A DNA stretch of 64,000 bases from Nanobdellota archaeon (GTDB taxonomy: Archaea; Nanobdellota; Nanobdellia; Pacearchaeales; GW2011-AR1). The notes beneath the pieces are model-generated. The model saw nothing but the letters and a program-made list of their open reading frames with translations. It was not told where the DNA came from and searched no databases. The stretch is taken from assembly GCA_013329055.1 (NCBI GenBank), contig DUKY01000007.1, positions 51,146 through 115,145 on the forward strand, read 5' to 3'. Position numbers and translations under genes: made by a program. Shown piece after piece: positions 23,221-59,033 of this stretch (position 1 is its first letter; the number at the start of each line of letters is the position of its first letter).

Positions 23221-23503
23221 AACCGCCAAGCCCCTGAAAGAAGATATGATTTAAATCATATTATAAACCACTGATAGGAATAGTGGACATTATTTATTTT
23301 TTTATTTAATTCCTTAAAATTTTATAAAATCCCGACGGGATTTTCCTCATAACCCATGAAAGCTTCTTTAAATTCACCCTCAAAAGTTATTCGTTCATTT
23401 ATTCGAACTTTCAGAGTTACTCGCCCGCAACTTTTAAAGTTTTTTGAATCTACTCAGATTAAACCCTTGAAATAAATATATACCTTTCTGTTTGTATATA
23501 TTA

Positions 23504-23599
23504 TGACCCCGACGGGAGTTGAACCCGCGACACCCAGATATCTCCATTGATAATTAAATCTAAGAGTCTGGTGCTCTAACCAGGCTGAGCTACGGAGCC
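23504..23599 (-). tRNA. tRNA-Lys (anticodon CUU) with a ~21-nt intron at the canonical 37/38 position
   Basis: Manual fold: acceptor GGCUCCG/CGGGGUC, D arm GCUC-AGCCUGGUUA-GAGC, anticodon stem CCAGA/UCUGG with loop CUCUUAA interrupted by GAUUUAAUUAUCAAUGGAGAU. T arm GCGGG-UUCAACU-CCCGU, discriminator A. Confidence 0.75.
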
Positions 23600-24030
23600 A
23601 TAGTAAAACATTAGTGATTTACTTTAAAAATATGTTGATTTACGTTAGCACCAGACGTAACTGGGGACGTTGAAAATTTGCCAAAAAGAAATTTTTAACA
23701 ATCAGAGAATTAAATTACAATTCTCTGAATCTAACCAGGCTGAAGCTACTGCAGCCATAGTAAAACATTAGTGATTTACTTTAAAAATATGTTGATTTAC
23801 GTTAGCACCAGATGTAAAGAGTCTGGAGACGTTGAAAATTTGCCAAAAAGAAATTTTTAACGATCAGAGAATTAAATTACAATTCTCTGAGTCTAACCAG
23901 GCTGAAGCTACTGCAGCCATAGTAAAACATTATTGATTTACTTTGGCACCAGACGTAAAGAGTCTGGGGACGTTGAAAATTTTGTAAAAAGAAATTTTTA
24001 ACGATCAGAGAATAGATTGATTGAAAATTT
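23600..24030. repeat. Tandem array upstream of tRNA-Lys: about 2.7 units of ~160 bp, each carrying a promoter-like segment, a 27-nt degenerate copy of the tRNA 5' end and a 10-bp-stem hairpin
   Basis: Repeated gcagccat (complement of the tRNA 5' end GGCUGCAG…) at ~23751-23758 and 23911-23918. Repeated cagagaattaaattacaattctctg hairpin. Confidence 0.8.
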
Positions 24031-29329: not shown

Positions 29330-29485
29330 ATTATATTAAAATAATCATATTATTTAAATCTTTTTTGCCGAAAGGAATTTTTATTCTTTTTATGATTTGC
29401 AAAAGGATTATTACTGGGAAATAAATAATTAGGGATAATATAACAGTGTTCTACTCCAAAATTTGCTTTTTTTCTAAAACCCTAA

Positions 29486-29496
29486 CTTTTAAAAAT
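29486..29496 (+). promoter_or_regulatory. Duplicated copy of the tRNA-His promoter-like A/T box upstream of the tRNA-His pseudo-copy
   Basis: ttttaaaaatc lies ~30 nt upstream of the GGCGG start. The whole ~75 bp upstream segment is duplicated at 29440-29525 and 29740-29805. Confidence 0.3.
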
Positions 29497-29525
29497 CTCA
29501 TAATTTATCTATAAACATTCATAAT

Positions 29526-29736
29526 GGCGGTTGTGGTATACAGAAATTAAAAATTTCTGTCCCTACAGGATTAAACTGTGCCTTCGCACAGAAAGATATT
29601 AAAAATCCTGAAGGTACAGAGATTAAAAATTCTGTCCTACAGGATTAAACTGTGCCTTCGCACAGAAAAATATTAAAAATCCTGCAGGTAACGGTTATTA
29701 CATACGGTTGGGGTCAGAGCAAAGAGGGTTCGACTC
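29526..29736 (+). pseudogene. Truncated/disrupted tRNA-His copy: 5' 15 nt, then a 150-bp hairpin-dimer insertion, then a mutated anticodon/T region, with no 3' acceptor strand
   Basis: GGCGGTTGTGGTATA | 29541-29690 insertion | ACGGTTATTACATACGGTTGGGGTCAGAGCAAAGAGGGTTCGACTC, then the duplicated promoter region. Confidence 0.55.
29541..29690. repeat. Tandem dimer (76 + 74 bp) of a cruciform-like hairpin module inserted in the D-loop of the tRNA-His pseudo-copy
   Basis: Each unit has cagaaattaaaaatttctg and caggatt…ctgtgccttcgcacag…aatcctg hairpins and ends in ggta. Confidence 0.8.
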
Positions 29737-29766
29737 AAAAATTCGCTTTTTTTCTAAAACCTTAAC

Positions 29767-29778
29767 TTTTAAAAATCT
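29767..29778 (+). promoter_or_regulatory. Candidate archaeal TATA-like box for tRNA-His
   Basis: cttttaaaaatc lies about 28-40 nt upstream of the tRNA start at 29806. Confidence 0.3.
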
Positions 29779-29805
29779 CATAATTTATCTATAAACATCA
29801 ATAAT

Positions 29806-29878
29806 GGCGGTTGTGGTATAACGGTTATTACGTCCGGTTGTGGTCCGGGCAAAGAGGGTTCGACTCCCTCCATCCGCT
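29806..29878 (+). tRNA. tRNA-His (anticodon GUG) with an encoded G-1
   Basis: Manual fold: G-1, acceptor GCGGUUG/CAUCCGC (one U·U), D arm GUAU-AACGGUUA-UUAC, anticodon stem UCCGG/CCGGG with loop UUGUGGU. T arm GAGGG-UUCGACU-CCCUC. Confidence 0.75.
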
Positions 29879-30352
29879 TAATAAATCAGAGACGAACCCT
29901 GGGTTCGATGAAAAATTTTGTGGTAGAAACTTATTCTTTCAGATAAAAATTCAAGCATTGAATAAAAGAGTTTCGTGCAAGATTTTGAACATCCCTCCAT
30001 CCGCTTATTTTCTTTACAGAAAATTGCGTAAGTTCGGGAGTCTTCGACTCCACAATTCGCATTCCGTGAAAGCTTCTTTAAATCAAGGAAAATTTTGATT
30101 TATTTGAACTTTCAGAAATGCTCAATTCGCATTCCGTGAAAGCTTCTTTAAATCAAGGAAAATTTTGATTTATTTGAACTTTCAGAAATGCTCACCATCC
30201 GTTTAATAAATAAGAGGCGAACCCCGGAGTTCGATGAAAAATTTTGTGGTAGAAACTTATTTTTTCAGATAAAAATTCAAGGATTGAACAAAAGAGTTTC
30301 GTGCAAGATTTTTAACATCCCTCCATCCGCGTTTTATTTTTAAGAAAGATTT
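29879..30352. repeat. Array of 3-4 modules downstream of tRNA-His, each bounded by a copy of the tRNA 3'-terminal 12 nt (CCCTCCATCCGC)
   Basis: 3'-end copies at 30003-30014, 30195-30201 (partial) and 30319-30330. Modules 29879-30002 and 30202-30318 are ~90% identical. The middle module has a tandem ~82-bp duplication (30046-30189). Confidence 0.8.
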
Positions 30353-41321: not shown

Positions 41322-41669
41322 TCATATTACTTCTAACTTTTTTCTCCCCCTTATAACCATTTTCTCATTTTTAACGCTCTTTTTTATTTCTTTATCTAAA
41401 GTTGCAATAATAATAAGGGGATTCTTTTTTGCAAAATTTATTAATAATTCGTCGACAATTCCTTTGCCTAAGCTTATTTTTTGATAATTTGCTTTATTTA
41501 ATAATGCTAATGCAATTTGTGCAGAAGAATTAGAGATGCTTAAACCTTCAATTTCTTTAATAACTTCCAGAGGGATAATAATTTTAAAACCGATAAGTTC
41601 TTCAAAAAAATCAATCTTTTGCTTAATACAGGTTAAGATAAAACTTGTATCCATTATTATTTCTTTCAT
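41322..41669 (-). CDS. PIN-domain protein (conserved neighbour of rpoE' in archaea)
   Basis: IMDTSFIL start and IIATLD acidic motifs. Confidence 0.6.
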   Translation of the reverse strand: MKEIIMDTSFILTCIKQKIDFFEELIGFKIIIPLEVIKEIEGLSISNSSAQIALALLNKANYQKISLGKGIVDELLINFAKKNPLIIIATLDKEIKKSVKNEKMVIRGRKKLEVI

Positions 41670-41784
41670 TTTTTTATATTTCCTGAAATAATAATGTTAG
41701 AAAATCTTTGATTTTCTATATATTCAAAACTTTTACTTCTGATCTTTGCGTAGGCAAAGTTTAGTTTTGAATTGATTATCTCTT

Positions 41785-42024
41785 TCATGGTCTCCTCAAT
41801 CGTTTTAATGCAATTGTAAATCCTATTACTCTTGCATAATAATTCTTTCCTAATTTTTCTAAAATTTCAGTTGAATATTTCTTTACAGAATCTTTTCCAT
41901 CTCTTGCACTTGGTAAAACCGAAATTTTTACATTTTTGCAAGTCTTAAATTGATTTTTCAGACTTTCAATAAAATTATCTGTTACTCCTAGTTTTCCTAA
42001 TTGTATGTTTCTTATTGCTACCAT
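41785..42024 (-). CDS. YhbY/CRS1 (CRM) RNA-binding domain protein
   Basis: GKLGVTDNFIESLKN…KISVL pattern in a ~80-aa protein. Confidence 0.6.
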   Translation of the reverse strand: MVAIRNIQLGKLGVTDNFIESLKNQFKTCKNVKISVLPSARDGKDSVKKYSTEILEKLGKNYYARVIGFTIALKRLRRP

Positions 42025-43869: not shown

Positions 43870-45165
43870 TTATCTAACATTGCTCCAATATTCCAAAGCC
43901 GTTTTTAACTCAGGGTGTGTTTTTGCATATTCATCTAAAGAAATTTTTTTCATGGTAGCATCAACAGCTTGACGCATTGCCCTTGCTCCGACAATTGTCC
44001 CTTGTGGATGACCGTGAATTCCTCCACCTGCCTGAATTACAACATCTTTACCCATAAAGTCTATAATTTTATCTACAATTCTTGGATAAACTCCTCCTGA
44101 AGCTACTGCGAACACAGGTTTAGTTCCATACCATTTTTGTTCAAGATTATTTTTTGTTTCAGGAGTAAAGTTATTTTCAATTTCTTGTTCTATATGCAAA
44201 ACTTCATTTTTATCTCCGGTCATTTTTCCATAGGCAGTTCCAATATGAAGCGTATCTACACCGACCATTCTAGCCCACTGTGCAATAATTTCCATGCTCA
44301 TGCCATGTTCAGGATTTCTATCAAACATTGCATGTCCTGCCCTATGTGCATGAATTGGAAGCTTTGTAAAGTTTCTTGCAGTTTGCAATGCACTCCAACC
44401 TAATGTGAGAATATCAAGCATAATATAATTTCCCCCATTTTCTTCCACAAATTTAATCCGCCTTTTCATCTCTTCACATTCTGCTGTGCAATTAATCAAA
44501 TAAACTTTCTTTTCCCCTGTTTCTTTTTCTGCTTTTTTTAAAGCTTTAATTGTCAACAAAAATCTTTTTTTGAATTTGTTAAAATTTTGACTTGTTAAAT
44601 TCTCGTCATCTTTTACAACGTCACATCCGCCTAACCATGATTCATATGCTACTTTTGCATGTTCTTTAGAAGTTAAACCTACTTTTGGTTTTACAATTGT
44701 TCCTACTAATGGTCTGTCTTTAATTTTCAAATATTTTCTTATACCTTTAATTCCATAACGTGGACCTTTAAAACTTTTTAACATTTTTTTTGGGATTCTT
44801 ACGTCTTCCCATAAAATTCCATCTGCACTTTTCATTCCGTAAATATTTCCGCCGATAGAAGACATTACACAGGGTAAATTTCCAAGTTCAAATAAATCCA
44901 GAGGATAAGCAATTCTAATTCGTTTATTTTCTTTATCAAGATAATATACTTTTGGAGCTAATTTTTTACCTATTTTTGGATTCATTGTTTTTACATCTGT
45001 CCATGTTCCAACACTACTTTCTCCTGCAACCATGCTTGCTACATCATTAAATTCATAACCTTTTGCGGGAGTTATTTTAAATTGGCAAAGAACATCAGTA
45101 TCTCTTGGCTTATATTTTAAATCAATAAAACTTCTATAACCGGATTTCAATTTTGTTTCCACCAT
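43870..45165 (-). CDS. rbcL: Ribulose-1,5-bisphosphate carboxylase large subunit, archaeal form III (or II/III)
   Basis: Active-site region GGCDVVKDDENLTSQ, CO2-acceptor Lys context, and C-terminal GGGIHGHPQG. Confidence 0.9.
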   Translation of the reverse strand: MVETKLKSGYRSFIDLKYKPRDTDVLCQFKITPAKGYEFNDVASMVAGESSVGTWTDVKTMNPKIGKKLAPKVYYLDKENKRIRIAYPLDLFELGNLPCVMSSIGGNIYGMKSADGILWEDVRIPKKMLKSFKGPRYGIKGIRKYLKIKDRPLVGTIVKPKVGLTSKEHAKVAYESWLGGCDVVKDDENLTSQNFNKFKKRFLLTIKALKKAEKETGEKKVYLINCTAECEEMKRRIKFVEENGGNYIMLDILTLGWSALQTARNFTKLPIHAHRAGHAMFDRNPEHGMSMEIIAQWARMVGVDTLHIGTAYGKMTGDKNEVLHIEQEIENNFTPETKNNLEQKWYGTKPVFAVASGGVYPRIVDKIIDFMGKDVVIQAGGGIHGHPQGTIVGARAMRQAVDATMKKISLDEYAKTHPELKTALEYWSNVR

Positions 45166-52090: not shown

Positions 52091-54802
52091 TTATAGTTTA
52101 TTAAACTTTTGTGTATTTGAAGAAAATTTGCCTCTTGGGGCTACTTGAGAACCAAAAGGGGTTTTTTCTTGAATAGGTTTTTTTTGAATACTTACTTTTG
52201 AGGGCAGATTTTTTAATTTTTCAAATAATTCTTTATGAGGAATTTCAACCATTCCTGTTCTTTTACCTGCATATTTTCTTAAAACATAAGTAATTTGCTC
52301 CATAGTCCAACCTTCTTTTTTTAAATTCAAAGTTATATCCTGATCAGACATTCCAGATTGTTTTGCATTTTGGATGTAATTTATTAAATTAAATAAATGA
52401 TTTTTATTTTTAAATAAGTAATCTTCATATTTCTTTTTGTACCATTCTTGTAAAATAATATATGCTACTATTCCCAATATAATTAATAAAAATAATATAA
52501 ACATAAAAAGAAATAATTTAAACTTTTTTTCTTCAGCAAGTTTAACTTCTTCTTCAAGATTTAATCTTTCAAGAGCAGGAGAAATAAACAACGGCAAATT
52601 GGTAAAGTCTACATTTTCAGTTGTGGAAAAAACAATCTCATAAGAAGGATCAATTAATTCTATTACTATATAACCTGATTCTTCTTTATCTAAATAATTT
52701 TCTTTTAATTTTAAATTTTCAAGTTTTTTTAGTATTAAATAAGGGGTATGCACGATTTCACCTTTTTCAGTAATTTCAATAGTAAATACTTTTAGAACAC
52801 TATCAATAGAAGATTCATAACCTACATCGTATCCTTCAAAAATAATTTTTACGTCTAAATTTGCCTGACCCCATCTTTGAATAGCTTTAATATATGCTTC
52901 TTCACCTTGTATAGAATAATCGCCTCCGCCAATTAATTGAAGGATATCAAGGTTTATATTTTGAGGGGTTGGATAAAAAGAGATTTTATCTGTTTTCATA
53001 CTTTGAACTAAATATTTTGGAATATCCATAGCTAATAATTTTACAAGAATAACATTATACTCTTCCACAGAACTTGCTCCGTAAAATTCTGTTTGAATTC
53101 CTTTTAGTTCTCCCTCAATATTATAAGTATCCAGTGATTCTTCCAAGCCTTTTTTTACAAAAGGGGTGAATGTATTTATTTGGGTTAAAACATTAGATAA
53201 ATCAGCTTGTTTTCCAGCTAAAATCTCCTCTATAATTTCTTTTGGAGAACCGACAGTTACACTAAAAGTTTTAGATACAACTCGCTGTTTTGAATCTGTA
53301 ATTGTGACGGTAATGTCATATTGACCTAAATTTTCAAATGTATGGGTGATTGTGTTTACAGAAGTTATATTTGTGCTATTTCCTCCAAAATTCCATTCAT
53401 ATTTGACAATTGTGCTATTTTCAAATGTTTCAGCATTGATTTTAAAATCAGTAGGATATCCTGTTACAGTTTTTGTTGGTTTAATGCTTTGCAAGATTGG
53501 AATTCTTTCAACAAAAATTTTTTGAGTGAAAATGCTTTTGTTATTTAAAGTTAATGTAAAATTCTTTTCTCCATAATTATTTGGAGTTAAAAATTTGGCA
53601 GGATTTAATTGAAGCTGTTGAAAATCTGCAGTGATATTTGATGAAACTCTGTCTAAGTCGTAAAATTTATTACTTATTGTTGGACCTAAAGTTGTGTCAT
53701 AATTAATTTTTAAATTTGAAAGATTAATATTTTGATTTGCCCCTGAGTAAAAAACGATTGGGATAATGCAATTATTTGAACAGTCTAAAGAACCATATCT
53801 TTGAATTATATAATCGCTCATCAGGCTATTTAATGATATTTGACCTTCTAAATAACTTGTAATGTTAATTTTTCCTATGCTATCGAAACTTTTACCTTGT
53901 GCAAAGATCTCAAAAGAAGCTATTTCAAGACCGATGTCTGAACCATAAAAACCACATCCATTTTCTGCATCCTGATAACCTCTTATTTTTGAAGTTCCCT
54001 GATCTTTTTCTGAATAAATACAAACAAAATATTCTTGTGATTCTGTAACTAAGTATTCTACATCACAAGAATATTCTCCTATTTGATTTACTAAAGGCAA
54101 TTTGCAATCTTTTAATTTTTCTCCGTATAAATTATAAAGTCCCATTGATAAATTTCTTGTATCCCCCGAAGGATTAATCCATGCACCTAATTTAAAACCA
54201 GGAGATTCAGTAAGTTTTATTCTTTGGCAATGCTTATTTGGATAAGTTCCAATAGTAAATTCGCTTAATGTCTTATTTCCAGAAAAACATCCTCTTGTTT
54301 TTAAATAATTACAGGCTTGTGCATCTGAAACTCTTGAATTTCCAGATTCAATTAATCCATCTTTGGTAAAGTCTATTTTAAGTTGATTTGTGCAAGACGG
54401 ACCTGCATCGCTATCAATAGTAAAATTAATAGAATTAATATTCAAGATATTACCTTGAAGATTTAATCCGATCATTTGATTACTTCCACTACTTAAATAA
54501 AAACTTTTTACTTCCTGACCATTTTTTGGGAGATATTCGACTTCACAAGCTAAATTTGTACATTTATAATCAGCCTCTTCATTAATCTTTAATAAATTAA
54601 TTAAACTAATTATTTTTCCGCTTGAATCACGAAATAGAGAATCAGAAGGTTCATTATTTAAACTAATATTTATCCAGCCATTAATTATTTTTTGAGGACC
54701 ATAATAAGTGTCGATACTATGAGAAAGGTTACCTACTTGGAAACTTGCACTTACAAAACTAATTAAAAACATGCAAATTATAAAAAATTTTATCATCCTC
54801 AT
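52091..54802 (-). CDS. Large secreted/membrane-anchored surface protein with PKD-like domain and C-terminal TM plus cytoplasmic tail
   Basis: Signal peptide, PKD-like YEWNFGG…TVTITD, and a TM helix near residue 760. Confidence 0.65.
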   Translation of the reverse strand: MRMIKFFIICMFLISFVSASFQVGNLSHSIDTYYGPQKIINGWINISLNNEPSDSLFRDSSGKIISLINLLKINEEADYKCTNLACEVEYLPKNGQEVKSFYLSSGSNQMIGLNLQGNILNINSINFTIDSDAGPSCTNQLKIDFTKDGLIESGNSRVSDAQACNYLKTRGCFSGNKTLSEFTIGTYPNKHCQRIKLTESPGFKLGAWINPSGDTRNLSMGLYNLYGEKLKDCKLPLVNQIGEYSCDVEYLVTESQEYFVCIYSEKDQGTSKIRGYQDAENGCGFYGSDIGLEIASFEIFAQGKSFDSIGKINITSYLEGQISLNSLMSDYIIQRYGSLDCSNNCIIPIVFYSGANQNINLSNLKINYDTTLGPTISNKFYDLDRVSSNITADFQQLQLNPAKFLTPNNYGEKNFTLTLNNKSIFTQKIFVERIPILQSIKPTKTVTGYPTDFKINAETFENSTIVKYEWNFGGNSTNITSVNTITHTFENLGQYDITVTITDSKQRVVSKTFSVTVGSPKEIIEEILAGKQADLSNVLTQINTFTPFVKKGLEESLDTYNIEGELKGIQTEFYGASSVEEYNVILVKLLAMDIPKYLVQSMKTDKISFYPTPQNINLDILQLIGGGDYSIQGEEAYIKAIQRWGQANLDVKIIFEGYDVGYESSIDSVLKVFTIEITEKGEIVHTPYLILKKLENLKLKENYLDKEESGYIVIELIDPSYEIVFSTTENVDFTNLPLFISPALERLNLEEEVKLAEEKKFKLFLFMFILFLLIILGIVAYIILQEWYKKKYEDYLFKNKNHLFNLINYIQNAKQSGMSDQDITLNLKKEGWTMEQITYVLRKYAGKRTGMVEIPHKELFEKLKNLPSKVSIQKKPIQEKTPFGSQVAPRGKFSSNTQKFNKL

Positions 54803-54844
54803 TTTTAAAAAGGAACCAATACAGATTTATAAATATTTGTCCAA

Positions 54845-56563
54845 TTAATTTTTTCTTAAAGATATCATTGAATAAATTCCAACAATTAGGAAAATAGTAA
54901 TGATTAAATTATAAAATCCAAAGAATGGAAGTTGTATCTCAGCAGGACAAGGGATAATATTTGAACCCCCGATACATTTTTGAGATAATTTAAATGGATC
55001 ATAATAATAAAGTCCATTTGCTAAAACATAATCAGCGACTTCATCAGAAGGACCATTACCATATGCTGTGTATCCATTATCAGCTCCCCAAGCCCAAATA
55101 GTTGACCAAGAATATTCTAAAAATCCATCATCACATGTATCTACTGTGCTTTCACTATATTTACAATTACCAATTGCGGGGATACTACTATCAGGATCAC
55201 AATCTAGTCCAGGAGAAGAACCCCATGTATAATCACATTTATTAGTTGAAGAATTCCATATACATTTACATAACATTAAATATGTGCATGAGGGGTCAGG
55301 ACCTGCTACTTCATCGCCACATTTTGTATCATTCCAAATATCGGGAAATGCTTCAAAGACTTTTTCATTTACACTATTTTCTGCTGCATCACAACCAATA
55401 TAATTACAATCTTTACAAGATGATTCATCTTCATAATTTGAGCACCAGGGTGTAACATCTGAAGGTAAAATTCTTAATTTAGGACTTTCATATCCTTCAA
55501 CTTTAAAATAAAAACCATCATAATCACCTATTTCAGTGATTGAATAATCTTCTTCAGTTATTGTCCAAACACCAATTACTCTTCCCCAACCTGCCCTACT
55601 AAATGTTCCGGGAATAGCATTTATACCTGTTCTAATTTCATCATCAAAAGCAGGGTCATCTTCAAAGATTTCAAAAGAGTATGAACCAGTTAAATCACGA
55701 CCAGTGTTATTAAATATCAATTGAACAGTTTCACCAATATGAGCAGGGATATCTGTTGAATTAAAAGTACCAATTCTTTGTCCTTCAGAATTTACCCAAA
55801 ATGCTGCTGTTTCTAATTTACAAATATTTGAACATCCATCTTCACTTAATTTACCACCATCATCACATGTTTCAAAAGAAATATCTATAACATCATCTCC
55901 ACAATGAGGTCCAGTACCATTGCAATATTTGTTACAATTATAAGGGGCAATATCACTATATACTCCATTTAATGCACCATCATCACAAATTTCATTAATT
56001 AAATAACTATTTGGTTTTTGAAGAATACCATCCCCACAAGGTCTTGCCTGTTTGCAACATACTTTTAAGTTATATTCATTAAAAGTTCCAACATGTGCAT
56101 TTGTTGCACCAGATAATGAAAACATTTGAATAGGATAAGTTGAACTGCAAGAGCCACTGCTACTTACACAATTCAAATCGCCAAAATAAACATTATTTGT
56201 GTAACTTGTTTGTTCTGGTGCTTGAACATGAGCGTTAGTTATGCTTGAAAGACTTGCAACTTTATTTTGCCTGCTATCACTGTTTGTATGTGGATTGGGA
56301 TAAGAAAAATCACAACATAAATAATAATTAAAATTTGTTTGATCATATCTTTCAGCATGAGAATTTGATTGAGAAAACATTTTGAATACAGTATTATTAG
56401 GATTACAAGATGATTGCACACTACAAAGATCAGAGCTTACCAATCCAAATGAAAATATTAGATAAATTAAACTTACGTTAAAAATCACCAATTTTTTTGC
56501 TTCCATTAAGACTTTATTGTAAAAGATATTTTTAAATGTTTTTAATAAAGAAATTATAAACAA
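54845..56563 (-). CDS. Cys-rich surface protein with CGDG…E.CDDG repeats and a C-terminal TM anchor
   Basis: Signal peptide. CGDGILQKPNSYLINEICDDGALNG and CGDDVIDISFETCDDGG resemble the Myxococcus-type cysteine-rich repeat. Confidence 0.6.
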   Translation of the reverse strand: MFIISLLKTFKNIFYNKVLMEAKKLVIFNVSLIYLIFSFGLVSSDLCSVQSSCNPNNTVFKMFSQSNSHAERYDQTNFNYYLCCDFSYPNPHTNSDSRQNKVASLSSITNAHVQAPEQTSYTNNVYFGDLNCVSSSGSCSSTYPIQMFSLSGATNAHVGTFNEYNLKVCCKQARPCGDGILQKPNSYLINEICDDGALNGVYSDIAPYNCNKYCNGTGPHCGDDVIDISFETCDDGGKLSEDGCSNICKLETAAFWVNSEGQRIGTFNSTDIPAHIGETVQLIFNNTGRDLTGSYSFEIFEDDPAFDDEIRTGINAIPGTFSRAGWGRVIGVWTITEEDYSITEIGDYDGFYFKVEGYESPKLRILPSDVTPWCSNYEDESSCKDCNYIGCDAAENSVNEKVFEAFPDIWNDTKCGDEVAGPDPSCTYLMLCKCIWNSSTNKCDYTWGSSPGLDCDPDSSIPAIGNCKYSESTVDTCDDGFLEYSWSTIWAWGADNGYTAYGNGPSDEVADYVLANGLYYYDPFKLSQKCIGGSNIIPCPAEIQLPFFGFYNLIITIFLIVGIYSMISLRKN

Positions 56564-57075
56564 GATTTGTATTTTAATAGAGATCTATATTTCCAAAGAG
56601 CTTTTGTTGCAGGCAAGTTCATTTCAACACCTAAGTCTCCGTTTTTATTTGCTGACTTAATAATTGAGCAAACACTATAAGAGTTTAATGCGGCAAGATA
56701 ACTTGAATGCATATATAATAAAAGGTCATAGTCTTCTGTAGATCCTTCAACAAAAGTTCCTAAATTAAATACATATGATTTTTCCCATTGCCTAAATCCG
56801 CTATTAAAATTGTAAAATCTTAACAATATTTTTGTGTCTTTTGGCAAATCTTTCATCATTTCATTATTTGTAAATTCCTGATTTAAATTTTGGTAATCCA
56901 TTTCAGATGCTTTTAGAGGAAGATTCATTACTACTTTTCCTGTTGAAGGACCAAAAAGAGATTTATCTTCAGAATTAATAGATAAAATTAATCCAAAGAT
57001 TATAAGAGCTAATAATAATAAATAAAATCTAAAATTTATATTTTTTAATAATTCATTAAAATTTATTTTCTTCAT
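56554..57075 (-). CDS. Small secreted protein, first gene after the tRNA-Trp repeat array
   Basis: N-terminal TM/signal. Stop overlaps the next gene's start. Confidence 0.45.
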   Translation of the reverse strand: MKKINFNELLKNINFRFYLLLLALIIFGLILSINSEDKSLFGPSTGKVVMNLPLKASEMDYQNLNQEFTNNEMMKDLPKDTKILLRFYNFNSGFRQWEKSYVFNLGTFVEGSTEDYDLLLYMHSSYLAALNSYSVCSIIKSANKNGDLGVEMNLPATKALWKYRSLLKYKSCL

Positions 57076-57128
57076 TATTAATTTTAAATTTATTTAATTT
57101 AAATATTTATTCCAAAATTCAGGGATGT

Positions 57129-57685
57129 TCACTACTTACAGAGAATCAAAGATTCTCTGAAACACAAAATCTATACTGTGCCTACGCACAGATCAGAAGT
57201 ACAGATTTTGTTGTGTCCTAAAAAATTTCTAAAGAAATTTTTGGGAATTCAGAGATTGAAAATCTCTGGAACTTCAGGGAACCTGAAGTCTTCAAAAGGC
57301 GTTACTTTTGAAGTAATCTAACCCTTGGGTTATATTCACTTCAAAATATACTTGTTTTGAAGTCCCAGAGAATTTGAAAAATTCTCTGAGCCTCCTTAAT
57401 GGGTACGGAGGTACAGAGAATCAAAGATTCTCTGAAACACAAAATCTATACTGTGCCTACGCACAGATCAGAATTACAGATTTTGTTGTGTCCTAAAAAA
57501 TTTCTAAAGAAATTTTTGGGAATTCAGAGATTGAAAATCTCTGGAACTTCAGGGAACCTGAAGTCTTCAAAAGGCGTTACTTTTGAAGTAATCTAACCCT
57601 TGGGTTATATTCACTTCAAAATATACTTGTTTTGAAGTCCCAGAGAATTTGAAAAATTCTCTGAGCCTCCTTAATGGGTACGGAG
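57129..57685. repeat. Two tandem ~285-bp units, each a string of ~9 short hairpins, each ending in a copy of the tRNA-Trp 3' end
   Basis: Unit period 57129 to 57414. Hairpins include cagagaatcaaagattctctg, ctgtgcctacgcacag, cagagattgaaaatctctg, cttcagggaacctgaag. Terminal ccttaatgggtacggag occurs at 57394-57410 and 57669-57685. Confidence 0.85.
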
Positions 57686-57746
57686 GGAATCTAACCCCCG
57701 TCTGCCGGGCTGGAGCCGACCATAATAAACATTATACTACGCACCC
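57675..57746 (-). tRNA. Candidate tRNA-Trp (anticodon CCA) with atypical D- and T-loops
   Basis: Manual fold: acceptor GGGUGCG/CGUACCC, anticodon stem GUCGG/CCGGC with loop CUCCAGC, T arm GGGGG-UUAGAUU-CCCUC. D-loop AAUGUUUA lacks GG and T-loop lacks C56. Confidence 0.5.
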
Positions 57747-57796
57747 GTATAATTTAAGTTAAAGAATTCAATTTTTAAAATGTTCCCTTTTAATTT

Positions 57797-58483
57797 TTAA
57801 CCAATTGCTTTTATTTCCTGGATTTCTTTTTCGCTTATTGCACAACCTTTGAATTTTACAGCCCAAAGCATAGCATCTAAAATCCTTGAATCATTCCATC
57901 TTGAAAGATTCTTTTTATATAATACATAAATTAATTCGGCAGATCTAATTAATTTTAATCCTTCAAAAATAGGATAATTATTTTTATTTGAAGTAATTTT
58001 TGTCTTTAATTTGTCTTCAAATAATTTTCTTAAATTTTCCGGTTTTTCACATAACATTCTTGTTGTTCTTTCATCAATTACAATGACATTCATTATTCCT
58101 TTTTTTTCAAAAATTCTACTTAAGGCTAAGCAAGAAGCTTCACCTAGATGAATTAAATTAATATTTTTTTGCTTTTCGTAAAAAGTCGTATTTGCTAGAT
58201 TCAAAAAATGAGTTGTTCCCCTTGATATTTCATCATCACTTATACCCACTGCAGAGGGCAGTTCAATAATTTTATCATCTAATAATTTTTTTAATTTTAG
58301 GGCTTCTAATTCAAAACGCTTAATTGTTAAAGGCCTATCAATTATTTCTGATTTAACTTCGTTAGTAATAATAAATTTTCCATTAAAAATTTTTCTTAGC
58401 TCGATTAATTCGTGGAGTAATCCGTTTATTGCAAAACTAATTAAAGAACTTGCATCAAAAATCATCATTTTCTCTTCGGTCAT
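57797..58483 (-). CDS. PIN-like domain protein (extended)
   Basis: MIFDASSLI start, and later GEASCLAL and NVIVIDERT acidic motifs. Confidence 0.4.
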   Translation of the reverse strand: MTEEKMMIFDASSLISFAINGLLHELIELRKIFNGKFIITNEVKSEIIDRPLTIKRFELEALKLKKLLDDKIIELPSAVGISDDEISRGTTHFLNLANTTFYEKQKNINLIHLGEASCLALSRIFEKKGIMNVIVIDERTTRMLCEKPENLRKLFEDKLKTKITSNKNNYPIFEGLKLIRSAELIYVLYKKNLSRWNDSRILDAMLWAVKFKGCAISEKEIQEIKAIG

Positions 58484-58484
58484 T

Positions 58485-59033
58485 TTAGTTAAACATATCC
58501 ATTGCTAATTTAATTCTATCTTTTGTGTCAAGAGTCTTACCAAGTAAAACATCTGAAATACCTGTTTGTCCTGCATAATCTGCTAATTCATACATTGAGA
58601 TGCCTAATAATTCTGCAGTTTTTTCCATAGAGATACCATGCTCATAAATTCTCGAGGCTTTGTTTATACTTGCTTTTCTAAAAACTTCTTTGATGTAAAC
58701 TTTTAATTTTTTAGAAAATTGATTTATAGAATGCCTAATTTTTTGCAAATCCTTTCTAAAAAGTTTTGTATCATCTTTTTGCAAATCCTGAATTATATTC
58801 TCAACAATTAAAATAATTTCATCACTCCATTTTGAATTTTTATGATAATTTCTTTCAATAATTTTACTTAATGAATAAACAATTATTGCAACAGCAATGC
58901 TATCCGGATCCTGAACTATTGAAGCAGTATGAATTGTTTGATTTCCTAATTCTTTTAATTTAAGAACATCCTCTCTTTTTATTGCCTCTTTTGTTTCCTG
59001 AAAGATTTTTAATAAATTTTCCCTTTCTTCCAT
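58485..59033 (-). CDS. Hypothetical protein with a possible C-terminal HTH, partner of the PIN-like gene
   Basis: EKTAELLGISMYELADYAG segment. 1-nt gap to the next gene. Confidence 0.4.
   Translation of the reverse strand: MEERENLLKIFQETKEAIKREDVLKLKELGNQTIHTASIVQDPDSIAVAIIVYSLSKIIERNYHKNSKWSDEIILIVENIIQDLQKDDTKLFRKDLQKIRHSINQFSKKLKVYIKEVFRKASINKASRIYEHGISMEKTAELLGISMYELADYAGQTGISDVLLGKTLDTKDRIKLAMDMFN

Follow-up and report, generated by a model that had tools for sequence, protein, structure and literature searches.

Strain-variable palindrome arrays at the tRNA genes of a Pacearchaeales archaeon, with likeness to bacterial REP/BIME and BOX mosaics

Repetitive extragenic palindromes (REP) and the bacterial interspersed mosaic elements (BIME) of enterobacteria and pseudomonads are non-coding palindromes of 20-50 nt which form DNA hairpins and lie in head-to-tail mosaics, and the composition and copy number of these mosaics vary between strains. 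BOX elements of Streptococcus pneumoniae are modular (boxA-boxB(n)-boxC) with a variable number of internal modules; their more than 100 dispersed copies are intergenic, often near gene starts, have stable predicted folds and are not tied to tRNA ends. DPANN archaea possess tiny, streamlined genomes that are thought to be poor in mobile elements. At tRNA genes, integration usually leaves one complete and one partial tRNA copy (PMC9897764), and tycheposons integrate serially with partial tRNAs between them and leave scattered remnants (10.1101/2020.12.28.424599). Here we describe an array of short palindromes which adjoins the tRNA-Trp gene of a Nanobdellota archaeon (Nanobdellia; Pacearchaeales; GW2011-AR1). 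The analysed stretch, called the window below, comprises 64,000 nt (GenBank assembly GCA_013329055.1, contig DUKY01000007.1, positions 51,146 to 115,145 of the forward strand), and every tRNA gene in it bears such a fast-evolving palindrome array. The array at tRNA-Trp appears to behave like REP/BIME or BOX mosaics and in part resembles arrays of attachment-site (att) remnants, but the features that define each of these classes were not found in it. In the literature searched, no account of arrays of this kind in DPANN archaea was found.

Tandem Repeats Finder placed a repeat at 57137-57686 with a period of 275 bp, 2.0 copies, 99% matches and a score of 1093 (Table 1). The original prediction, made from the letters of the window, had given a period of 285 bp, which was 10 bp too long, and about nine short hairpins per unit; the units are indeed built of hairpins but contain ten of them (H1-H10), chained one after another. 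It had also placed a copy of the tRNA 3' end at the end of each unit, the second one on the real tRNA, without naming a strand, and this was borne out. The final 21 nt of the unit on the plus strand, cctccttaatgggtacggagg, occur at 57391-57411 and 57666-57686 and consist of 12 nt of the tRNA-Trp 3' end (linear nt 61-72, CCTCCGTACCCA on the tRNA strand) and 9 nt of trailer. Positions 57675-57686 are at the same time the last 12 nt of tRNA-Trp and the end of the proximal unit, i.e., the proximal copy is the real tRNA end. Since tRNA-Trp is encoded on the minus strand, the array lies downstream of the tRNA and upstream of the minus-strand gene 56554-57075. The order on the tRNA strand is the 228-aa gene, tRNA-Trp, the proximal unit, the distal unit, a 61-nt spacer and the 173-aa gene.

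Table 1. Features of the tRNA-Trp palindrome array, its surroundings and related loci (window positions; hairpins are given for the distal unit, with twins in the proximal unit).
Feature	Position	Strand	Description
tRNA-Trp(CCA)	57675..57746	-	ARAGORN; Rfam RF00005, 53.3 bits; intron-less, CCA not encoded
Proximal 275-bp unit	57412..57686	.	Tandem Repeats Finder and module map; in tRNA sense T3/H10, H9, H8, H7, H6, H5, H4, H3, H2, H1
Distal 275-bp unit	57137..57411	.	99% identity to proximal unit
H10/T3 module	57391..57411	-	exact-match scan; copy of tRNA-Trp nt 61-72 (57400-57411) and 9-nt trailer TTAAGGAGG; twin 57666-57686
H8 (B-type) and H9 (A-type)	57338..57388	.	H8 ACTTCAAAA-N8-TTTTGAAGT; H9 CAGAGAATTT-GAA-AAATTCTCTG; twins at +275
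H7, palindromised T-arm fragment	57315..57336	.	AATCTAACCC-TT-GGGTTATATT; twin 57590-57611
H5 and H6, both B-type	57271..57313	.	H5 ACTTCAGG-GAA-CCTGAAGT; H6 CTTCAAAAG-GCGTTA-CTTTTGAAG; twins at +275
H4, A-type palindrome	57250..57268	.	CAGAGATT-GAA-AATCTCTG; twin 57525-57543
H3 palindrome	57216..57246	.	AAAAATTTCT-AA-AGAAATTTTT; twin at +275
H2, composite hairpin	57163..57213	.	12-bp outer stem; conserved inner hairpin CTGTGC-CTAC-GCACAG; 8-nt one-sided loop ATCAGAAG; twin 57438-57488
H1, A-type palindrome	57139..57159	.	CAGAGAATC-AAA-GATTCTCTG; twin 57414-57434
Distal array junction	57113..57136	.	strain-specific; AGTAGTGAACATCCCTGAATTTTG in tRNA sense
AT-rich spacer	57076..57112	-	directly before ATG of 173-aa gene; conserved in all array variants
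Three-gene set downstream (context, outside array)	52091..57075	-	173 aa; 553/572 aa, Cys-rich, weak DUF4215 match; 903 aa with PKD domain
Isolated H2-H1 module	41666..41788	-	between YhbY-like and PIN_9 genes (upstream of PIN gene); reads as 40-codon ORF
tRNA-His sister array	29442..30351	+	around tRNA-His 29806-29879
tRNA-Lys(CTT) sister array	23326..24010	-	intron-containing tRNA at 23503-23600

The modules form a family composed of A-type palindromes (CAGAGAAT..ATTCTCTG), B-type palindromes (CTTCAAAAG..CTTTTGAAG), the composite hairpin H2 and palindromised pieces of the tRNA T arm. One arm of H7, AATCTAACCC, matches tRNA-Trp nt 50-59 exactly (GGGTTAGATT on the tRNA strand) and pairs with an inverted copy of itself; in sister strains the match to the tRNA reaches nt 61. 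In H10/T3, CCTCC/GGAGG makes a 5-bp stem with the acceptor 3' strand inside the loop. No credible open reading frame (ORF) was found in the array and the tRNA-end copies match exactly, in agreement with the proposed non-coding hairpin cargo with direct repeats of the tRNA 3' end. A coding reading was rejected: the 65-aa ORF at 57399-57596 crosses the unit junction, and the unit lengths of 275, 179 and 101 nt found among strains are not multiples of 3.

Hairpins were called as perfect stems of at least 8 bp, nested calls of a single hairpin being tallied separately, and 22 of the 38 calls in the window fell within the 550 bp of the array. The palindrome CAGAGAWT..AWTCTCTG occurred six times in the array with none expected. 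Folding of one unit, as had been proposed, gave -104 kcal/mol for the minus strand and -100 kcal/mol for the plus strand, whereas shuffled sequences gave about -56.5 +/- 4.6 kcal/mol (z approximately -10 on either strand). About 98% of the pairs in the module stems are Watson-Crick; G-U pairs are rare, equally on either strand, and the summed folding energy of the modules is without strand bias (-136.8 kcal/mol in tRNA sense versus -137.5 kcal/mol in antisense). Because the stems are symmetric and Watson-Crick paired and show no strand bias, the modules are read as DNA palindromes and not as RNA selected on one strand. The spacing of the A-type half-sites ranges from 3 to 9 bp, and the bases between them are also palindromic; judged from these sequences, the variable spacing would fit hairpin extrusion and not a duplex operator of fixed spacing.

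All four high-scoring tandem arrays of the window sit at its three tRNA loci, and none was found in a further 10 kb without tRNAs. Upstream of tRNA-His there are tandem pseudo-copies consisting of the promoter and tRNA nt 1-61. The outer one contains two 74-nt H1-H2 units in its D loop, inserted cleanly with a duplication of at most 1 nt. Other assemblies possess one additional pseudo-copy (+206 nt), i.e., the tRNA-His array varies too. Downstream of tRNA-His follow element A1 (112 nt), the repeat TCCCTCCATCCGCTT, element B (including two 70-nt units), a partial repeat, A2, the repeat TCCCTCCATCCGCG and then TTTTATTTTT. Repeats of the tRNA-His 3' end, TCCCTCCATCCGC, at 29992 and 30318 separate the elements A1, B and A2; element A has 15-nt tRNA-end repeats on both sides, and after the outermost repeat comes an oligo-T trailer, as expected for the original gene end. 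Pieces of the tRNA-His T arm were found palindromised as CGAACCC-T-GGGTTCG and GGAGTC-TTC-GACTCC. Upstream of tRNA-Lys, 162-nt units (2.3 copies) each contain a pseudo 5' fragment, a promoter copy, an anticodon-arm copy and an A-type palindrome. A copy of the tRNA-Lys 3' end, TCCCGTCGGG, lies within a palindrome (23326-23344) about 160 nt downstream of the tRNA end and precedes a T-run, and a T-arm palindrome reads AAAATCCC-GAC-GGGATTTT. The partial copies of tRNA-Trp, tRNA-His and tRNA-Lys all break at canonical nt 60-62, the boundary between the T loop and the 3' strand of the T stem. The orientation of the modules relative to the adjoining tRNA is not constant between loci.

Three further observations were made at these sister loci. 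The tRNA-Lys(CTT) gene was labelled 'tRNA-???' by ARAGORN, owing to its intron of about 22 nt. Its 162-nt repeats are made of scrambled tRNA pieces (a 5' fragment, an inverted D-stem/anticodon-stem fragment and an anticodon-arm copy lacking the intron). A module GAAAGCTTCTTTAAAT...TTTATTYGAACTTTCAGA is common to the 3' flanks of tRNA-Lys and tRNA-His (23350-23420 and 30053-30192) and is oppositely oriented relative to the two tRNAs.

A search for further copies, which the original prediction had suggested, found them at tRNA-His, at tRNA-Lys, at 41.7 kb in the window and in another Nanoarchaeia genome. The module family is small, dispersed and present in at least two Nanoarchaeia species, with four loci in the 64 kb of the window and three in the other species. 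Among 185,579 species genomes, the H2 core pattern had two matches, both in the Nanoarchaeia metagenome-assembled genome (MAG) SMAG_U8054, and four more were obtained in JGI metagenomes. In this MAG, an H2-H1 module of about 85% identity lies directly upstream of two genes for secreted proteins starting with MKK...; on either side of the module, ribosome-binding site and start codon are directly repeated over 9-35 nt. The MAG also contains a pair of A-type and B-type hairpins after the stop of another gene, followed by a T-run. Four JGI metagenome contigs carry modules of the MAG type, and one of them is a strain variant with a 51-nt submodule present three times. Five H2 variants fold alike, with an outer stem of 9-12 bp, a 6-bp inner stem with a CUWC loop and a one-sided loop of 8-12 nt, and they share this architecture despite four unrelated outer-stem sequences. 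They were compared by per-sequence folds; column-wise covariation on a MAFFT alignment was dropped since the outer stems are 1 nt out of register between variants.

The H2-H1 module can also be read as an ORF of 39-40 codons, the stop codon of which overlaps the ATG of the next gene (window 41666-41788; L006 4590-4712; L007 647-769; L010 1800-2025). In the window, the ORF opens with the codons MKEII, a copy of the PIN_9 gene start. The homologue in the MAG (P0123) has 64% identity to the predicted 40-aa product, and the hairpin arms change compensatorily as the residues change (F..K versus C..Q). In the strain variant, the 51-nt submodule corresponds to 17 codons repeated three times in frame. 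An exhaustive protein search with the 40-aa ORF yielded only P0123 and the spurious match P0122. The latter, a weakly matching 303-aa 'protein', is a translated 177-bp satellite of about 15 copies (L138 4066-7287) on a 1.75-Mb long-read contig and was judged unrelated.

Variants of the tRNA-Trp locus were taken from contigs encoding identical 228-aa or 173-aa proteins, and module maps were made for 12 locus variants. The public annotation of the 40-aa ORF at 41.7 kb and of the 173-aa protein names archaeon GW2011_AR13; the neighbouring proteins have their best homologues in Candidatus Pacearchaeota/Nanoarchaeota, archaeal markers (OapB/OapC, an archaeal CCA-adding enzyme) are encoded nearby and the G+C content is about 28%. 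The spacer between the tRNA and the 173-aa gene measures 447, 461, 681, 721/722, 764 or 865 nt among strains. These spacers contain one to four tRNA-end copies (including the real tRNA end), differing sets of modules and three distal junctions, and lie between flanks of 95-100% identity. In tRNA sense, the window form reads T3 H9 H8 H7 H6 H5 H4 H3 H2 H1 twice, where T3 is the tRNA-end copy. A sister strain with flanks of about 95% identity reads T3 H7 H6 H3 / T3 H7 H6 H3 H2 H1 (x2) / T3 H9 H8 H7 H2' H3' H6' H5 H4, which corresponds to units of 101, 179 and 179 nt and then a diverged distal unit with extra modules. Further contigs showed a window-type unit joined to the distal unit of the sister strain, or a truncated terminal unit. 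All units of all variants start at CCTCCGTACCCA. Both main array forms were present in a single sample, ERZ28563708 (L003 and L143), and the two-unit and other forms were seen repeatedly in independent JGI, ENA and NCBI assemblies; therefore, the variation is biological. How many copies there are exactly is uncertain, given an assembly with a single unit and N-gaps within the array in several scaffolds.

Relatives with 60-67% identical homologues of the 228-aa protein keep tRNA-Trp directly downstream of this gene, and the array is absent from them. In such relatives (L012, L014) an oligo-T run comes immediately after the tRNA, with a distance of 31-48 nt to the start of the next gene. The absence of the array at kept synteny indicates that it is an innovation of the AR13 lineage and not a conserved leader. 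Comparison of occupied with empty sites showed that the arrays of this lineage begin within the tRNA, at nt 61. The alternative named in the original prediction, a fixed leader co-evolving in relatives, with no additional copies and no junction polymorphism, did not agree with these data: extra copies exist, polymorphism of junctions and copy number is extensive among near-identical strains and the relatives have no fixed leader. Distal TCCCT (57116-57120) was considered as a relic of the original tRNA end but is ambiguous, as it aligns equally to a degenerate H4 arm of the sister strain. In a related Pacearchaeota contig (L016 4167-4316), the tRNA-Trp gene has an intron of about 75-80 nt after the anticodon and was missed by ARAGORN.

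The array, with its REP/BIME- and BOX-like modules, is read as a tRNA-anchored mosaic minisatellite. We hold with middling confidence that the locus belongs to a palindromic repeat family of this kind which forms such minisatellites by recombination. The array is non-coding and turns over faster than the flanking genes, and with the same middling confidence it is taken to be selfish or neutral, without a function for the host. The likeness to REP/BIME consists in short imperfect extragenic palindromes and in a mosaic composition that varies among the 12 locus variants. The array differs, however, in having no sequence similarity to REP and no 5' GTAG signature (GTAG occurs just as the H2 loop, on one strand), in the archaeal host and in its anchoring at tRNAs, fragments of which are taken up and palindromised; the RAYT (Y1 HUH) transposase was not found in the ORFs tested here. 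With BOX it shares an intergenic position, often near gene starts, stable predicted folds and the construction from a few hairpin-forming submodules of variable number, but its sequence is unrelated and it is tied to tRNA ends. Features of CRISPR arrays were not found, as whole units of 101-275 nt repeat and unique spacers are not present.

According to this mosaic-minisatellite reading, hairpins or cruciforms would be extruded from the palindromes where the DNA is single-stranded or supercoiled, and would give rise to replication slippage, template switching and unequal crossing-over. By such events modules would be duplicated, deleted or reshuffled, and with them a stretch of the adjoining gene end, from a few bases to tens of bases long (here the tRNA's final 12 nt). 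At each tRNA, the initial event may have broken at the boundary between T loop and 3' T stem, either through a site-specific recombinase encoded elsewhere or through template switching guided by the T-arm hairpin. Later amplification would have kept the original break phase, so that each unit begins with CCTCCGTACCCA. The two units ending in the tRNA 3' end are read as the direct result of a tandem duplication that took place recently within an older, phase-locked array, which would grow, shrink and be reshuffled as similar palindromes recombine. Should the modules be mobile or recombinogenic, they would provide a marker for strain typing and be a hidden cause of assembly breaks. They would also be a source of partial tRNA genes, some of them promoter-bearing, and could affect host-interaction loci via the surface-protein genes alongside.

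Several points weigh against this reading. Firstly, the search for an enzyme (RAYT-like, integrase or other) was empty, although it covered about 6-7% of the approximately 1-Mb genome. Secondly, the H2 inner hairpin and bulge are conserved to 85-100% across two species, which could reflect a function instead of selfish spread. Thirdly, copy numbers may be misreported by short-read assemblies. Finally, the breakpoints at one position in three tRNA genes and the 112-nt element A with its 15-nt flanks fit a site-specific integrase better than random slippage. The common breakpoint and the clean 15-nt repeats hint, as far as the sequences go, that a site-specific step was involved as well; if the breakpoint reflects an enzyme, a new recombinase-site pair exists to be found.

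The strongest alternative, in our opinion possible but improbable, is that integrative elements, miniature or decayed, have accreted here. Small att-bearing DNAs would have been recombined again and again into tRNA-Trp, at the boundary between T loop and T stem, by a tRNA-specific tyrosine-type integrase whose gene is located elsewhere or has been lost. With every event a fresh tRNA 3' end and arm sequence of the element would be added, the palindromes would be arm or core binding sites, and deletions and unequal recombination would yield mosaics like the remnant arrays of tycheposons or cis-mobilizable elements (CIME). This would account for the same tRNA nucleotide at the start of every unit, for partial copies of tRNA-His and tRNA-Lys broken at the same structural position, for the repeats around element A with the oligo-T trailer after the outermost one and for the empty sites of relatives. 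Tycheposons set a precedent for serial integrations parted by partial tRNAs only (10.1101/2020.12.28.424599). The array shares serial tRNA 3' repeats from the T arm, short non-coding DNA between them and variable presence with Prochlorococcus tycheposon islands, streptococcal CIME accretions and archaeal integrated elements (10.1101/2020.12.28.424599; PMC9897764). However, the units of 101-275 nt are too small for autonomy, and the tandem copies are 99% identical. The cargo consists of palindromes throughout, and the same modules also occur off tRNAs, in the D loop of a pseudo-tRNA and at gene starts. Direct repeats of a tRNA 3' end bound both sides only in the case of tRNA-His element A, and the distal side of the tRNA-Trp array has no tRNA-end copy.

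The searches for a mobile element point the same way. By Pfam, integrase, transposase, Cas1 and Y1_Tnp were not found in the 40 of 61 window ORFs tested, and the gene tables of the flanking loci list housekeeping genes only; integrase fragments were not found either. IMG/VR had no match to the 3' part of the tRNA or to the H2 core, blastn found no match in phage and plasmid collections, and no attP-bearing virus or plasmid emerged from them. A viral scan with the pattern CAGAGAATN{3,9}ATTCTCTG was discarded as too loose, as it returned single chance palindromes in unrelated contigs only. The classical att-flanked insertion of the original prediction is therefore not supported: there is no distal bounding tRNA-end copy, no integrase or transposase in the 40 ORFs and no phage, plasmid or viral copy, and the units represent a plain tandem duplication.

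Transposon-like origins were compared in the same way. Miniature inverted-repeat transposable elements (MITE) and the palindrome-associated transposable elements (PATE) derived from IS200/IS605 are likewise small, non-autonomous hairpin DNAs, and the clean 74-nt H1-H2 insertion in the D loop recalls them. The array differs from them in that consistent terminal inverted repeats with target-site duplication and a conserved target tetranucleotide are not present and TnpA/TnpB were not detected. A-type palindromes do occur at both unit ends, but the flanking duplications measure 0-1 nt (D loop), 9-35 nt (MAG) and 12-21 nt (tRNA-Trp). Casposons carry Cas1, terminal inverted repeats and target-site duplications of about 14-15 bp; the units here are without Cas1 or any gene, and tRNA-His element A shares the 15-nt flanking repeats without terminal inverted repeats.

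An extension of these comparisons appears speculative and rather unlikely. The arrays could mark a class, not described before, of non-autonomous, palindrome-built mini-elements of Nanoarchaeia/Pacearchaeota which a recombinase recognising folded single-stranded hairpins inserts at the loops of tRNAs, both in the D loop and where T loop and T stem meet. If this were true, the tRNA piece next to each insertion would be copied or made palindromic, and partial tRNA genes with promoters would be left behind. tRNA genes could then be fragmented by a process that is active today, which bears on the origin of split tRNA genes in Nanoarchaeota.

A functional cis element is a distinctly weaker candidate. 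The chain of hairpins might act as terminator or insulator between the highly expressed tRNA-Trp and the surface-protein operon or protect an RNA 3' end, and its copy number might tune or phase-vary the operon like a contingency locus. In line with this, the array is placed exactly between the tRNA and the secreted-protein operon, in which all three proteins have N-terminal hydrophobic segments. Moreover, the MAG modules lie upstream of two secreted-protein genes and after a gene stop with a T-run, the tRNA-sense strand of the array contains T5-T6 runs and co-occurring strains differ in copy number. In relatives, however, a plain oligo-T run suffices after the tRNA, and archaeal termination, to our knowledge, needs no hairpin. 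Arrays also occur upstream of tRNA-Lys and tRNA-His, where a terminator or insulator role does not apply. Within the 37 nt preceding the ATG of the 173-aa gene, a TATA-like TTTAAAT lies about 25-30 nt ahead of the ATG, where such a box would be expected if the archaeal mRNA were leaderless. Because these 37 nt are conserved whereas all sequence upstream of them varies, the operon most likely has its own promoter downstream of the array, and 57076..57112 is its probable core promoter. The long structured 5' leader that had been considered in the original prediction does not agree with this arrangement, kept in every variant, nor with relatives that have no array. A low-complexity AT-rich tandem repeat of 15-27 nt at 57026-57111 (Tandem Repeats Finder) spans the start of the 173-aa gene and the spacer; it is probably compositional.

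We consider a structured non-coding RNA slightly less probable still. It would be derived from the tRNA trailer or from the H2 motif, be co-transcribed with tRNA-Trp and be processed to protein-binding hairpin RNAs. The folding z of -10, the strong promoter adjoining the array and the H2 architecture, which is conserved across loci and species with covarying outer stems and a conserved loop and bulge, speak for it. Against it stand the equal folding of both strands with G-U pairs nearly absent, the free gain and loss of modules among strains and the differing module orientation relative to the tRNAs, and the T5-T6 runs should halt archaeal RNA polymerase early. With the covariance models of Rfam 15, only the tRNA passed and nothing meaningful appeared even at E<=5. 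Several specific RNA roles were tried and rejected. For C/D-box or H/ACA small RNAs, the RUGAUGA box is not present and CUGA motifs occur at chance level. A K-turn in H2 was dismissed, given a one-sided bulge and no tandem G-A on both strands. As to a primer-binding site, the tRNA complementarity is just 12 nt and trivial from the opposite strand.

An assembly artefact, i.e., duplication of a single 263-nt hairpin-rich spacer, is very improbable: one MEGAHIT assembly (L001) has a single unit and several scaffolds have N-gaps in their arrays, but different samples, assembled independently (JGI, ENA, NCBI), repeatedly gave two- and multi-unit forms with unit-specific single-nucleotide polymorphisms and indels.

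Some minor observations concern the surroundings of the array. A replication origin at the array was discarded, as the GC skew turns with the orientation of the genes and has its main turn near 33 kb rather than at 57 kb. The sister strain (L140 524-952) has an extra gene for a 142-aa acetyltransferase between the 182-aa and 228-aa genes. This gene is absent at 58483-58485 in the window and present in more distant relatives (L014). The window also encodes a homologue of the RuBisCO large subunit (43870-45165, minus strand), and such homologues are reported for DPANN archaea.

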